NCBI RefSeq assembly: GCF_053078305.1
Contig: NZ_CP166879.1
Reading direction: 5' to 3' (one strand)
Length of the DNA stretch: 64,000 bases
Program-made: the position numbers
In this document: positions 18,001 to 24,000 of the stretch, one piece after another
How positions within the stretch are numbered: position 1 is the first letter of the stretch
Layout of the letters: the number at the start of each line of letters is the position of its first letter

Positions 18001-21000
18001 GCAGGAAGATTAAGAATCCGGCAGCTTCTGCCAGAACGGATATCAGGGCGAATTACTGGAGTCTGTTAGCGGGGCCTTCATGGCGGGTTAATCAGTACAT
18101 GAGTTTATATGCGATGGCAGGGATGGGCGTTGCTAAAGTTAGCGCTGACCTGAAAATTAAGGACAATATTAACAGTAGTGGCGGATTTTCTGAAAGCAAC
18201 AGCACGAAAAAAACCTCCCTTGCGTGGGCTGCAGGTGCACAGTTTAACCTGAATGAGAGTGTTACACTGGATGTGGCTTACGAAGGTTCCGGCTCTGGCG
18301 ACTGGCGCACGAGTGGCGTTACTGCTGGCATTGGCCTGAAATTCTGACCTGTATCCGGTAACCGTTTACTACCCGCTGTGATGGCGGGTTTTTTATTGCC
18401 CGTACAGGGCAAAAACCGTAAATTATGCGTGGGTGCCTTTCGGCTGATGGCTGGAGGGAGAACCTGAAGGCCTGATGTGGAAAGGCCCCGAGTCAACTTT
18501 AACGTTAACCCGAGGCCCTGACCGTACAACCTTCACAAGTAGTAGGTTAGCGCCTCTCCATTCAGGAGACAAGCGTTATGTCGCAAAAATCGCTCATCAC
18601 CGTCACAATTTGTATGACGGTTATCTTCACCATCTGGATGTTACACGGCTCGTTGTGTGAGTTCCGGCTGAATTTGTGGGGAGCGGAGTTTGCGGCGTTC
18701 TTACAGTGTAAGCAGTAGGAAAACCGCGACGGGGATGAAAGTCCCCGTCAACTGGTTGCTGAGGTTCAGCCGATATGGCACCCGTTTCAGGTGAGAGAAT
18801 GAACGATAAAATTCTCCGGTATATGCAGCGTGTGGTGAGAAATTCCCGCAACCCTGAATTTATGAATGAAGTTAAAGACGCCTGCCTTAAAAAGCAGGCG
18901 TTTTGTTTTGAGGCACCTGATGGCTTTCTGGTGCTGCGTTCTGTGCTCAGTGACGATGGTATCCCTTATGTTCTGGTGTTGCTGGGCGTGTGTACGGGGA
19001 GTAACAGCGTTGAGCGTTATCTGCCGGAGGTGAAGACATTAACCCGTCTGGCTGGCGGACGCTGGGCTGAATTTCATACGGCAAGGCGGGGATTTATCCG
19101 GCTGGGAAAACGTCTGGGCTTTGAGCGAATGCCGGATGATGAGGATGGCTTCATGGTGTTCAGGATAGCGGTCTGACTGCTACAGTTTTCATCATTGTGT
19201 TTAAACCAACATTGTAATTCACATTCTGACCCTGCTCCGGCAGGGTTTTTTGTTATCCAGGGGGCCATTATGGGTGGAAGTAAAGGCGGTGGTGATACCA
19301 AAGTAAAACCAACAGCAGCGCAAATAGCACAGGAAGAAGTGGCCTGGAAAGGGTGGCAGGATTATCAAAAAATCCTCCGTCCGGCAGAAGATAACTTCAT
19401 GGAAAAGGTCGATGACCTTAACAGTGAGCAGCAGTACGAAAATATCGCCGGTACAACAAATCTGGGATATCAGAAACAGTTTGGTGAAACGCGAAGGGAG
19501 CTGGCGGGTAATCTTGCTCAGTCCGGCGTTGACCCATCCAGTGGTCGTTTTAATGCGGTAATGGATGCAAATCAAAGCGACCAGGTGACCGGGCAGATTG
19601 ACACAACCACACGGGGACAGGTGTCGCAGGCAGATAAATATATTGCCGGGCTACAGGATGTTGCAGCTCTCGGTTCTGGTCAGAAGGCGGATGCGTTACA
19701 GAGTTTTAACTCTCTGGCAGACAGCAGTCTGGCAAAAGCTAAATCGGATGCACAGGCGGCGTTTACGAAACAGCAGGGTCGAGCCTCTCTTGTTGGCGCT
19801 GGTCTGGGTGCGGCAGGTGCATATGCGATGCATAAGGCTGGCGGTAGCGGAGGAAGTGGCGGTGCTAAAACACCTGGCACCGGCGCTAATGCCATTCAGT
19901 ATCAGGCTCAGAACTGGAGACTGTGATTATGGAGTACGGTAAATACGAAACACTTGCGAGATACGGTTATACCGGAGCAGCCCGCCCTCAGGGGGACTGG
20001 CAGACATCCGCAGCGCTGACCCGCCAGCAATACGACGACTGGCGCACCAGATATTTACCCCGTGTAGCAAGGCTGGCTGACCTTGGCGAGAACAACAGCC
20101 TGATGAATGCACAGCTTGCCCGGGTGGGCGGCCTTGCCACTTCCAGTCTCCGTACAGCGCAGATGGCGCAGGATAACCAGATGGCGAGATACGGGGTAAG
20201 CCGCCCGGATAATCCCGACAGTAATACGCTGGGGTTACGTAATGCCCTGGCAATAGCAGGTGCGAAAAATGGTATCCGTGAAGCCGAACAGGATCGCCAG
20301 ATGAATATTCTGACGGGGGCTTCTGCACCGGCAAGACAGAAACTGAGTGTTGGCGGACAACTGGTGGCAGCGTAAGGGGGCAATATGGGATACGGTTTAC
20401 TGGATATTGCAAATCAGTCGCGGCGTGAGGCATTACAGGGAATAAGTGACGCAGACAGACGACGTACAGAGATTGAGGCATCAAATAAACAACTGGCTGC
20501 TCAACAGAAAGCTCAGAAAAAACAGAATATCGGTACGGGCATTGGTACGGGGGCGGCTATTGGCGCATCCGTTGGTGGTCCTGTTGGCGCTGTTGCTGGT
20601 GCAGTAATTGGCGGCATTGCAGGCGCTTTGTTTTAAGGAGTGGTGAATGAGCGGATTTGCACAGGGGTTACTTGCCGGATTCAGCACTGTTGACCAGGCA
20701 ATGACCCGTCGTAAGGAGCTTGGTTTGCGAGAAGCACAGCTTGCTCAGCAACAGAAAAATAACGAGCGCGATTTTGAATTTGCGCAGTCTCAGTTTGAGC
20801 ACCGAAAAGAAAATGATCAGCGTACATATGATCTTAATGTCAGGAATGCCGATCGTGAATATGCGCTGAAAGAGAGGGAACACAAAGCAGCGCAGAATTA
20901 TCGAAATGCGTCACTTGGGCTATCTCAGCAGAGACTGCAACTGGAAAAATACAACCAGCGACGGCTTGAGTATAACGATATGCTGGCGCGCGATCAGCCT

Positions 21001-24000
21001 GTGATGGCGGCGCTGGGAAAAGCGATTGATGCGGGTGACCATGATGCGGCTTCTCATCTGTTCGGTAAATTATCGGACGCCAATCCGCTTAAGATGATGT
21101 CAACGGAAGGCTATGCTGCGAAAGCGGGTCAGGCCGTGAACAACCTGCAGAAAATCCTTGATGATAAGCCGGACAGGGCGATCGATTCGCTGAATACCCC
21201 GGAAACTCTCGATATGCTTTCCGGCGTGTTTGCCCCGGAACTACAACAGCGTATTGGCATGCCTGATTCAACCGGGGAAAAAACGATAAAAGAGGCCAGG
21301 ATTGGCAGTATCGTACCGGCGCAGCAGGAAGGGTACGTACTTATTGGCCTTGATCTCACATACAGCGATGGCTCCACCGCGCATAAACCTGTAACAGAAT
21401 ACGGCAGTGCGCACCCTGATGATCAAACCGTGCTGGCGATACCCGTTGATAAGGCTATCGCTCAGGTCAGGGATCGCAGCAAATTTGCAGAGATATCGAA
21501 AAATTATGGTTATTTTATGCCGAAGCAGCAGGGACTTTCTCTGAAAGAGCTTCAGAAGGGGGCCAGCAACGTAGCGGCGGACGCGATCAAGAATGGCGGT
21601 AATGCACAGGCTGCGGTGGATGAATATTATGCTGCGACTGGTTCACAACCGCATCAACAGAAAATTCAGCAACAAAAACTTCAGCAACAGGTTATCAACT
21701 GGGCGGGAGATGATCCTGATAAGCTGTCATTTGCCAGAAATGTAGCGGCCCGTCAGCCTGAAATGCTGGAGCCTCAGAATCAGAAATTGCTGGAGAACGG
21801 GTATGCGAATTTTCTCCGTATTCAAAAGGCCAGGGGGGAACAGGCCAGAGATGAAAGTGCTTCATCTGCATCTCAGTTTATCCGTGGACTGAAACAGAAT
21901 TACGCTCAGTAATTCACGATATTCCATTAACACCATTTCCTGATGCCCGGCCATTGTGCCGGGTTTTTTTATGGAGTCTGTATGGCCTATTCAGAGGAAC
22001 AGCGTCCTGAGGCGCAACTCGGTAACCAGAATCGTAACAGCCTGAACATTCAGCAACCCGGCGAAACTGACAGCTATGAAGCATTTTTCTCTGATCCGAA
22101 TCGCTGGAAGGATAACAGTACGTCGTTCAGCCTGGGCGATGTATTGCCAACAATGGGTAAAGGTTTCGCCCAGTCCGTCCGGGGAACAGGGGAAATGGCC
22201 CGTGGACTCGGTGATGCGATGATTCAGAGCCCGGTAAAAACAGGGGCGCGTATTTTAAATGAGTTCAGCCGTATGGGGCTGCCGGGTGTCGCAACTGTGC
22301 AGGATATTTTTGCCGGTGGCAGCAGGGGGGCTGATGAGGTCATCGATACCCTGCCTGATGGCAAAAACGCGGTTACTGATACTGTCGGTAAAGGTCTGAA
22401 GGCAACCGGTAAGGTTGTCAGTGATGGTGCTGAAGCCACTGATGAATGGCTGACCGGTAAGATGTCGCCGGGTGCTGTTCGTGCGCTGAATACGCCGATG
22501 ACCGAAGGCTATGATGATTCTGCGGTCTGGGTGGCGAAGGGTGTAAACCTGATTGGTGCGCTTGTACCTGATATGGTTGCTGGCGGTGTGGCTAAAAAGG
22601 TGGGTGATGTCACACTGCGAAAAATGCTGACCGCCGGGCTGGAGAAAAAATACATCGCGGCAGGGATGCAGCCGGAAAGAGCCACGGCACTGGCAGCAGA
22701 AGCTGTCGATAAAAAAATGCCGGATTTATTCCAGGCGGGCCTGATCACCCATTCCACAGCCAGTGCACAGGGGCAGAGTGCAATGGCGGCAGCAGATGCT
22801 GTTCTTAATGCGGATTACTCTGAGCTGGCGCAGTCACCGAAATTTCAGCAGACGTTTTTGTCCATTGACGCCGACCCGCAGCACGCACAGCTTACTGATC
22901 GCCAGAAAATGGACCTGGCAAAAGAGCGTGTTGCTGATGAGGTGCGCGCGCAGCTGGCAACCGATCCTGAATTGCTGGCTGTGAATGCCATGGCGGCAAA
23001 ACTGGGTGACGCACAACTGTTTAATCTGGTGACACGAGGCACAGCGAAGACCGTTAAAAGCGGCATTGTCAGAAATGCCACGGAACAGGGCGTAATTAAC
23101 GGGGCACAGAACGCCTATTCGCGCTATCAGGAAAACATGGCATTGCGTGAGACCGCCGGAATGGATGTATCGCCATGGGAGGGGGTGACTGACGCAGGGA
23201 TTGAAGGCACTGTTTTTGGTGCTGCGATGGGCGGTCCATTCGGTGCGGTTGCCGGATATCGTGGCAGACGTCAGGCCGCAGAAGAAACCGCCATGCGTGA
23301 TGCTGAAACCGTGCAGCAGGGCGAAGCAGCCCCGCAACCAGAATCTGTTGATCCGGTGGCGCAGCAGCGTGAATCCATGCAGGGCATGAATCGCGAGCAG
23401 CTTCTGGAGCAGTATGCTGATGCGGATATGGCAACAGAGGGTGACGCATCCGCAGCTCATCGCCGGGAAGCTGCCAGCCAGTTGTTGAATGAACTGGACG
23501 AACAGGCGAAGCGACAGGCTGTGATGAATGAGCTGAAGGCGAAGCCGCGTTCTGAACTGCTTGAGGAATACCGCAGACTCAGCCAGAAAGAGGGGCGCAC
23601 CGAGACTGAAGAACAACAGTTTCAGGCAATACGAGAAGTCATTCGCCCACAACAGGAAGTGACGCCGGAAGCACAGTCACAGCCTGAAAATGCGGAGGAT
23701 GGTAACGGGAGCATTTACCCGACGGTGCGGTTCCGGGACCCGAATGAAGTCCGCATTGAAATTAACGGGAATGGTGCGTCCAGACCAGCGGAACGCATTG
23801 AAAAGGTGCGCCCGGACAACCGTTATTTCACGGATGAGAAAAGCGCCATGGGGAGTGATGTTTTCCGTAATGCCGCCGCCACCGGCCTGAAACCGTCCGT
23901 AGTGAAGAAAGGCGAGAATCAGTATGCCGTTGAAATGGATAATCCTGCGTTCTCTGAAGATATGGCAACGGAAACCATTAACACCCTGGCTGACGGAGAG

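Follow-up and report, generated by a model that had tools for sequence, protein, structure and literature searches.

Which genes of the short-tailed phages that spread Shiga toxin (Stx) genes serve the passage of phage DNA across the envelope of E. coli? This question is raised by a stretch of 64,000 nucleotides (nt) from contig NZ_CP166879.1 (NCBI RefSeq assembly GCF_053078305.1), hereafter the window, which holds a Sepvirinae prophage of E. coli that resembles the phages 933W, Sp5 and phi24B. At positions 19270-21912, four small genes, here designated A to D, lie upstream of a giant gene, designated G. An earlier note on this DNA had suggested that DNA-ejection proteins of a short-tailed virion are encoded by the four genes. 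Our analysis supports this suggestion: A to D together with G probably represent the ejection-protein ('ejectosome') cassette of a podovirus of the 933W/phi24B type, and thereby a divergent version of the P22-type cassette already known. The evidence consists of the presence of orthologous proteins in phi24B virions, of the phenotypes of deletion mutants in Sp5 and of profile links to P22 ejection proteins, from which we infer ejection itself. The five genes are the following (lengths in amino acids, aa):

19270-19926, + strand: gene A, 218 aa; corresponds to Sp5 ORF76/ECs1238 and to phi24B vb_24B_44, named 'gp51' in the phi24B preprint
19929-20375, + strand: gene B, 148 aa; corresponds to Sp5 ORF77 and phi24B 'gp50'
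20385-20636, + strand: gene C, 83 aa; corresponds to Sp5 ORF78, mis-annotated as 'bacteriocin'
20647-21912, + strand: gene D, 421 aa; corresponds to Sp5 ORF79/ECs1241 and phi24B 'gp48'
21982-30366, + strand: giant gene G, 2794 aa; corresponds to Sp5 ORF80 and phi24B 'gp47', a polyvalent virion protein

A scan of the window for open reading frames (ORFs) recovered A to D at these coordinates. As the earlier note had proposed, the four ORFs are coupled, with intergenic gaps of only 2, 9 and 10 nt and a Shine-Dalgarno-like motif ahead of each gene (GGAG, GGGGG, AGGAG). The lengths of the four products are the same in Sp5, whose ORF80 encodes 2793 aa. The A-D block is matched at 80-99% identity in 186 phage records, nearly all of which represent Stx-converting phages of the 933W/Sp5/phi24B type. 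Identity to the products of phi24B vb_24B_44 to vb_24B_48 amounts to 95.0% for A, 99.3% for B, 94.0% for C, 89.5% for D and 95.4% for G, and when codons are compared with phi24B, synonymous changes prevail in A (30 synonymous, 11 non-synonymous), B (9 and 1) and C (12 and 5). Conservation in 186 records, the excess of synonymous differences in A, B and C, and the peptides detected for the phi24B orthologs identify A to D as real genes. Minus-strand ORFs overlapping the block, e.g. at 19927-20484, were rejected as spurious because the + strand products are conserved and detected as peptides.

Presence in virions and role in infectivity

Phage phi24B has been described in a preprint from 2026 that combines cryo-electron microscopy (cryo-EM) with proteomics. 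It is a podovirus with a T=9 head and a tail built from the portal, two adaptor rings, a hexameric nozzle, a needle and six fibres, and its virion core is structurally closest to that of phage GP4. The proteome was recorded from the purified virion preparation that was also used for cryo-EM, in which full and emptied particles were mixed and not analysed apart. Virion mass spectrometry had been named by the earlier note as a means to check its proposal. Indeed, orthologs of A to D (89.5-99.3% identical) were detected in this preparation, along with the ortholog of G. The latter ('gp47 IP?') accounted for 10962 peptide-spectrum matches (PSMs) in total and 746 in solution, followed by the orthologs of D ('gp48 Transcription factor?'; 1634 and 179), A (523 and 82), B (129 and 83) and C (13 and 6). 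For comparison, the portal yielded 101 PSMs in the in-solution sample. The D ortholog migrates at full length and peaks one gel slice before the major-capsid peak, while the A ortholog peaks in the slice adjoining that of the small adaptor gp64. A peptide covering residues 2-21 of D (SGFAQ...) was recorded for phi24B, which shows that D is not N-terminally processed beyond removal of methionine.

Crude normalisation of the spectral counts to 12 portal copies returns approximately 32 copies for A, 48 for B, 6 for C, 36 for D and 22 for G, figures that derive from raw counts and are to be read as orders of magnitude only. The same procedure returns 6.6 copies for the nozzle, which is a hexamer, and 22 for the fibres with their 18 chains. 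In case of C, a low spectral count is to be expected and the copy figure is an underestimate, because merely 3-4 tryptic peptides of usable size exist outside of a 39-residue C-terminal fragment that lacks Lys and Arg. None of the five proteins is included in the cryo-EM atomic model of capsid and tail. Orthologs of A to D and G are thus present in purified virions, yet they are not part of the capsid shell or the tail. The main text of the preprint proposes only gp47, i.e. G, as an ejection protein and leaves gp48, gp50 and gp51 undiscussed; the C ortholog ('bacteriocin homolog') was dismissed as a contaminant.

Genetic data are available from Sp5, in which genes were systematically deleted in frame. 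Mutants lacking ORF79 (D) or ORF80 (G) excised and packaged DNase-resistant DNA at wild-type levels, and their heads were indistinguishable from those of the wild type. However, they formed neither plaques nor lysogens, and both defects were complemented in trans. Both D and G are hence required for infectivity at a stage that follows DNA packaging. Deletion of ORF76 (A) left only residual, strongly impaired infectivity. ORF75, a gene located upstream of A and considered further below, is non-essential.

Relatives of A to D and G in other podophages

The earlier note had described the proteins of the block as rich in glycine and glutamine. This holds for A (13.8% Gly, 10.6% Gln), B (9.5% and 8.1%) and C (18.1% and 8.4%), but only in part for D, which is rich in Gln (10.5%) and contains merely 6.7% Gly. 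The glycine zipper noticed in C was recovered as well. C comprises a charged N-terminal half followed by an uncharged, hydrophobic C-terminus of 36 residues, which is rich in Gly and Ala and matches the Pfam model Gly-zipper_YMGG with an E-value (E) of 1.4e-5; like all its Pfam glycine-zipper matches, this one stays below the curated cut-off. We compared protein families by profile-profile alignment using hhalign, from which all probabilities given below are taken. Residues 25-83 of C aligned with residues 164-229 of P22 gp7, which are its last 66 residues (probability 95.8%, E 7e-9), whereas the best of 30 column shuffles reached an E of 0.016 and the reversed alignment 0.006. Both proteins terminate in ...G(A/S)LF. 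BLASTP of C, or of Gerry gp25 (see below), against P22 gp7 gave no match, and the signal between C and gp7 is seen only in profile comparison.

Protein A is a member of phrog_611 and also matches phrog_8003, annotated 'virion structural protein' (E 1.4e-7). Judged by profile alignment, it is clearly homologous to gp66 of the Burkholderia phage BcepIL02 and to gp25 of the Ralstonia phage Gerry (probability 96.6%, E 5e-10), which both keep a C-terminal zipper on the same polypeptide as the A-like part. Direct comparison of gp66 and gp25 with gp7 was not significant (E 0.053). The A family itself aligned weakly with gp7 residues 25-71 (E 1.7e-4 to 3.8e-4, as compared to 0.035 for the best of 30 column shuffles). 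In this register residue 1 of A falls on residue 21 of gp7, i.e. MGGSKGGGD... in A is placed opposite to KGGKGGAD... in gp7. Residue 21 is the N-terminus of mature gp7, from which a propeptide of 20 residues is cleaved. The B family aligned with the A family over 100 columns (probability 90.7%, E 1.3e-6), by which measure B is a distant paralog of A. The simplest reading of these alignments is that a gp7-like protein would be represented by three genes here, with A and B corresponding to its N-terminal part and C to its zipper.

For D, the predicted structure (AlphaFold2, AF2; predicted local distance difference test, pLDDT, 88.8) shows an elongated, helical build in which one helix spans residues 4-129. 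No relative in fold or sequence is present in the PDB, and phmmer and profile searches with A, D and the D family against PDB sequences returned nothing meaningful. The D family is small, comprising 71 clusters among 1.84 billion representative proteins, and is conserved mainly over residues 1-285. Comparison with P22 gp20 gave a probability of only 0.5%; the two proteins share a short N-terminal G(F/L)LAG motif. BcepIL02 gp69 and Gerry gp27 escape detection by the hidden Markov model (HMM) of the D family and are positional analogs only. A link to known DNA-transfer proteins is provided by P0030, a Pectobacterium protein of 1386 aa. It starts with a D-type domain (29% identity over residues 1-264; phrog_601, E 3e-39), which is joined to the C-terminal part of phrog_2534 ('released from the phage upon host infection') and to a near full-length phrog_770 ('DNA transfer protein', E 3e-139). 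These two PHROG families also include P22 gp20 and gp16. BLASTP of P0030 against gp20 gave no match. The comparison by profile and structure search that the earlier note had recommended thus yielded links for C with the gp7 C-terminus, for A, weakly, with the N-terminal part of gp7, and for the N-domain of D through its fusion to gp20/gp16-type domains, while its structural branch yielded none for D.

The gene for P0030 (positions 10001-14161 of our Pectobacterium chromosome locus L009) encodes no cysteine and resides in an island together with an integrase, AlpA-type regulators and a primase. By its content, the island resembles a phage satellite that brings along an ejection protein.

Residues 41-200 of D (20767-21246) are hypervariable, with 60-85% identity to the counterparts in phi24B, POCJ13 and STEC1589, while the remainder is ~100% identical. 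Relative to phi24B, D carries 44 non-synonymous and 41 synonymous codon differences. P22-like gp20 is known to tolerate the exchange of very different intragenic modules.

The giant protein G contains the Pfam domains LPD5, LPD1, MuF_C and LPD38, which mark it as a 'polyvalent protein'. Its C-terminal third matches LPD38 and a phrog labelled 'DarB-like antirestriction', and its C-terminal 900 aa are common to giants of Vibrio, Ralstonia (GP4/Gerry-like), Burkholderia (Bcep22-like) and Bacillus podophages. Only a faint match (E 0.0035) was obtained to the phrog of virion RNA polymerases (vRNAPs). Around aa 405-428 (~23190-23270), G carries a short glycine-zipper-like element, GAAMGGPFGAVAG / GTVFGAAMGGPFGAVAGY, which resembles the zipper core of C and is found conserved in phi24B as well as in the giant (2022 aa) of locus L011.

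Gene order provides a further connection. Distant members of the D family (24-34% identity) in Vibrio phage 1.205.O and in the loci L008 and L011 keep the order [GNAT-like]-A-B-C-D-giant. Sizes are conserved, too: the products measure ~130 aa, ~210 aa, ~120 aa and ~80 aa, the last with a zipper, followed by D and a giant LPD protein. For each protein of the block, the one at the same position in Vibrio phage 1.205.O is the best match, and a specific one. Nozzle and fibre genes directly precede the cassette in the Vibrio phages, where no morons intervene. An equivalent cassette is found in Ralstonia phages as well as in BcepIL02 and JC1. Ahead of the giant gene, BcepIL02 and Gerry carry a GNAT gene, an A-like gene for a 'virion structural protein', a PAPS reductase gene and genes for further virion proteins. 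In JC1, products of the equivalent cassette were detected in virions purified on caesium chloride (CsCl), whereas acetyltransferase and PAPS reductase were classed as morons (PMC9144972). The PAPS reductase gene, whose product has 5 cysteines, sits amid cysteine-free virion-protein genes in BcepIL02 (2605-3324 of locus L006) and in Gerry (4738-5463 of locus L007).

Lack of cysteine is a shared property of the cassette. A, B, C, D and G contain not a single cysteine in 3664 residues (2794 of these in G), whereas 49 are present in the 5441 residues of 16 other late proteins, corresponding to 33 expected in 3664 residues (P ~4e-15). Likewise, cassette members are cysteine-free throughout Vibrio phage 1.205.O, L008, L011, BcepIL02 (including its giant of 4667 aa) and Gerry (giant of 4219 aa). 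The same is true for P22 gp7, gp20 and gp16, for P0030 and for N4 gp50, gp51 and gp52, the count for N4 covering gp51 (644 aa), gp52 (150 aa) and 3158 examined residues of gp50. In contrast, cysteines occur in the products of interleaved non-virion genes, i.e. the GNAT-like proteins (3 in ORF75), the PAPS reductase and P22 gp14. The paper on phage DEV had already noted that giant vRNAPs are free of cysteine. Absence of cysteine from an entire cassette is a simple sequence signature, which may help to flag ejected proteins in unannotated podophage genomes.

A putative route out of the virion and competing explanations

We propose that A to D and G are loaded into the head during assembly, in roughly tens of copies each. 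Release of the central needle at the BamA receptor would then allow these proteins to exit through the portal/tail channel ahead of the DNA, in a largely unfolded state, and to refold within the envelope into a trans-periplasmic conduit. In this conduit, the gp7-like set (A, B and C) would provide the tail-proximal part in the outer membrane. D, whose helix of 126 residues would measure ~19 nm, could build the periplasmic tube and thereby take the position of gp20, Sf6 gp12, T7 gp15 and DEV gp72. G would be placed at the inner membrane, like gp16 or the N4 vRNAP, and carry enzymatic cargo. Such a route may also account for the absence of cysteine, as unfolded passage followed by refolding in the oxidising periplasm would risk disulfide trapping.

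Several observations weigh against this proposal. In the literature on these phages we found no experiment showing that A to D leave the virion upon infection or form a channel. B and C (ORF77 and ORF78) are dispensable in Sp5, whereas gp7 is essential in P22; this difference may reflect the paralogy of A and B plus the extra short zipper in G. The match between A and gp7 is weak (probability 36-50%), and neither A nor C matched the curated Pfam model of gp7 (PF25688) at E <= 0.1 or the PHROG model of gp7 (phrog_598). Compositional bias can easily affect similarity between glycine zippers, but the shuffle controls speak against such an effect here. Moreover, D has no detectable relative in sequence or fold among the solved ejection proteins, and the copy numbers are coarse.

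Further points of this kind concern the tail. In P22, mutants devoid of ejection proteins (E-proteins) are tailed, unlike what was concluded for ORF79 and ORF80. The authors of the Sp5 study filed both genes under 'tail formation', as the deletion particles were not labelled by an antibody against the tail fibre (anti-ORF67; data not shown). D, with G, might accordingly be a factor for tail assembly or head completion, which allows tail and fibres to attach to DNA-filled heads, rather than an ejected conduit. Packaged DNA, normal heads and the lack of detectable anti-ORF67 labelling in both mutants fit this explanation, and essentiality after packaging fits tail assembly equally well. On the other hand, the tail of phi24B is fully accounted for without D or G, although both are abundant in virions. 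The antibody result was not documented, and in the same study tails were visible only occasionally, even on wild-type particles. Ejection is favoured by the cysteine-free composition, by neighbours related to gp7 and by a protein in which the D N-domain is joined to gp16/gp20-type domains. We therefore regard a pure tail-assembly function as rather unlikely. Both roles may also coexist, since internal proteins could aid DNA retention or a portal conformation that permits tail attachment.

The relation of G to DarB opens another explanation, in which A to D are Dar-like internal head proteins that load or chaperone a DarB-like giant, or shield the incoming DNA, and no conduit is formed. The C-terminal third of G with its LPD38 and DarB-like matches is in line with this idea, as are the homologous giants of Burkholderia and Ralstonia phages, which are annotated as DarB-like. 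In addition, incorporation of DarB into P1 requires several small head proteins (summarised in PMC9144972), and A to D would reside inside the head along with G. However, ORF79 and ORF80 are essential in the same K-12 background in which the phages were produced, where evasion of restriction should be unneeded. C and A resemble gp7, and the D N-domain is found fused to gp16/gp20-type DNA-transfer domains. Finally, homologs of DarA, Hdf or Ddr are absent from related Lessieviruses according to the JC1 authors (PMC9144972). A Dar-like function is improbable on these grounds.

It is hardly credible that A to D are morons or host-directed factors, with C being a bacteriocin, D a transcription factor and their virion signal a contamination: RefSeq calls C a 'bacteriocin' (Pfam Bacteriocin_IIc, E 3.9e-4), the phi24B record notes similarity of D to a transcription initiation factor and the preprint took the C ortholog for a contaminant, but the Bacteriocin_IIc match (20.8 bits versus a cut-off of 27.1) covers only the glycine zipper, the few spectra of C are expected from its few usable peptides, D migrates at full length, gives more spectra than the portal and is essential for infectivity, the GC content of the block (0.50-0.52) is that of the core late region as opposed to 0.39 for lom, and the cassette is conserved in Vibrio podophages that have no morons at this place. 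We consider both labels as artefacts, given the sub-threshold match restricted to the zipper and the conservation of the genes within a virion-protein cassette. Public labels are misleading in other records as well: in PQ600364 (20272-21659) and NC_025434 (21387-21638), the A homolog is named 'portal protein' and the C homolog 'N4-family major capsid protein' or 'bacteriocin', and for the D homolog a similarity to transcription initiation factors is noted.

Flanking genes and comparison with known systems

Three further features adjoin the block, the hairpins being taken from a sequence scan:

18775-19176, + strand: ORF75 (Sp5 ORF75/ECs1237), gene with a GNAT-fold model; its start is uncertain (18775 or 18799)
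19228-19254, + strand: terminator-like hairpin with T-run, directly upstream of gene A
21945-21971, + strand: terminator-like hairpin with a T7 run, between D and the giant gene

The earlier note had located the block between the morons and the giant gene. This placement is correct (lom at 17613-18347, G from 21982 to 30366), with ORF75 intervening between lom and gene A. ORF75 appears to belong to the A-D module and not to the morons. The GC content of the A-D block equals that of the rest of the late region. The two hairpins, for which the narrower spans 19228-19247 and 21945-21964 were also recorded, bracket the block within a late operon that is antiterminated by Q, and a third strong terminator-like hairpin with a T-run is present on the + strand at 18371-18389, following lom.

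The product of ORF75 carries the annotation 'hypothetical'. The AF2 model of ORF75 (pLDDT 90.8; predicted template modelling score, pTM, 0.81) was used for a Foldseek search of the PDB. All of the top 50 matches are GNAT acetyltransferases, led by N-terminal acetyltransferases (E 2e-4 to 5e-3; template modelling (TM) scores 0.42-0.62), whereas neither a Pfam nor a PDB profile match was obtained. The canonical acetyl-CoA motif (Q/RxxGxG/A, between beta4 and alpha3) is not evident in alignment and model, which feature a loop T66-G-S-N-S70 instead. Positional equivalents are V15 of the Vibrio phage (BLASTP, E 4e-6), ORFs of 124 and 131 aa in L008 and L011, and BcepIL02 gp65 and Gerry gp24, annotated 'acyl-CoA N-acyltransferase'; in JC1 the acetyltransferase at this position is RimL-like (PMC9144972). 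Counted together, five lineages have a GNAT-type gene ahead of the cassette. P22 gene 14 holds the same position. As alignment of the ORF75 family with gp14 (E 0.011 over 19 columns) and with BcepIL02 gp65 (E 0.36) was not significant, equivalence to these proteins would rest on position and modelled fold. We did not detect ORF75 in the portion examined of the virion proteome of phi24B. ORF75 is probably a GNAT-fold accessory at the head of the cassette and not a virion component. Tentatively, and with more doubt than confidence, it may be a conserved non-virion cassette component that acylates, acetylates or chaperones the ejection proteins and marks them for procapsid loading or membrane insertion. 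After removal of methionine the predicted N-termini are Gly, Ser or Ala (MGGSKGGGD..., MGYG..., MSGF...). The word 'acetyl' does not occur in the examined part of the phi24B proteome supplement, by which N-terminal modification is neither supported nor excluded.

Among the genes upstream of the block, the portal belongs to the P22 family (P22_portal, E 1e-128) and the adaptor is of SU10 type, both corresponding to components of the phi24B podovirus; terminase, capsid protein, fibre, nozzle and needle are encoded there, too. The prophage genes of the window include none for a tape-measure, tube or sheath protein. Both the lack of long-tail genes and the short-tailed virion put forward by the earlier note are therefore borne out, the latter by the phi24B-like prophage with its P22-like portal and by the solved podovirus tail of phi24B. 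At the right end, the prophage carries three ORFs. The first (30679-32244) encodes a YadA-like trimeric autotransporter and the last (33124-37167) a serine-protease autotransporter of the S6 family, with a small ORF (32259-32804) between them. These genes (30679-37167) are cargo that is absent at the matching position from the Stx-phage records examined. The chromosomal genes rcsD, ompC and apbE of E. coli follow beyond.

Previous accounts of these genes differ from ours, as the genetic study assigned ORF79 and ORF80 to 'tail formation' and the 2026 preprint considered the giant alone as ejection protein. In the literature on these phages we found neither an assignment of the four Stx-phage genes as E-proteins, nor a split and duplicated gp7 architecture, nor a description of the cassette-wide absence of cysteine and the conserved GNAT gene. 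If correct, the assignment addresses DNA passage across the E. coli envelope and yields hypotheses on entry, superinfection exclusion and host range of Stx phages.

Among the known systems, T7 with its gp14, gp15 and gp16 shares the logic of outer-membrane, tunnel and inner-membrane components, as judged by size and synteny and not by sequence. Product sizes in the cassette fit the known gp14/15/16-like classes. Unlike in T7, no ordered core stack has been reported in the phi24B reconstructions.

The Bcep22-like phages (Lessieviruses BcepIL02 and JC1) and the Ralstonia phages of GP4/Gerry type share homology in A and in the C-terminus of the giant, the GNAT gene at the head of the block, virion association of the products as detected by mass spectrometry, and freedom from cysteine. 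They differ in that the A-like protein retains its own C-terminal zipper, as a single gp7-like polypeptide, a PAPS reductase gene is interleaved, and the protein at the position of D (gp69 or gp27) is not detectably homologous to D. In the literature on those phages we found no ejection role assigned to the proteins of these blocks.

In N4 and DEV (Schitoviridae), the operon encodes an outer-membrane pore (gp52/gp73), a periplasmic tunnel (gp51/gp72) and a giant vRNAP (gp50/gp71). Both systems combine a small membrane protein with a helical one of ~500 aa and a giant of ~3000 aa that is invisible in cryo-EM maps, and they share the N4-type T=9 capsid and the cysteine-free sequences. However, G contains LPD/MuF modules and no RNA polymerase domain, two extra small genes, A and B, are present here, and comparison of the A, B, C and D families with N4 gp51 and gp52 gave probabilities of 0.6% or less in every case.

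The closest parallels are found in P22 and its relatives Sf6, CUS-3 and HK620. There the cassette is located downstream of the tail-needle gene, with products of small, medium and large size (needle-14-7-20-16 in P22, with 14 as accessory gene). P22 gp7, gp20 and gp16 reside in the virion, as do the orthologs of the proteins described here, and are present at ~12-30 copies. They are needed for DNA delivery rather than packaging, a requirement that is paralleled in Sp5 by D and G and in part by A. C resembles the C-terminal zipper of gp7, in a match that suggests homology, and A aligns from the mature N-terminus of gp7. With 421 aa, D belongs to the size class of gp20 and Sf6 gp12 (431-471 aa) and displays intragenic mosaicism as gp20 does. 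The portal belongs to the P22_portal family, and all ejection proteins lack cysteine. In contrast to P22, the gp7 equivalent would be spread over A, B and C here and has no propeptide of 20 residues; Sp5 tolerates the loss of B and C, no homology between D and gp20 is detectable, the position of gp16 (609 aa) is held by an LPD/MuF polyvalent protein of 2794 aa, and the capsid is T=9 (phi24B) instead of T=7. Taken together, the module would work like the gp7/gp20/gp16 cassette of P22, to which it is probably homologous in part, and resembles that of N4 and DEV in overall logic without sequence similarity, and its assignment links the ejection apparatus of the P22-like, 933W-like, Bcep22/GP4-like and N4-like groups.

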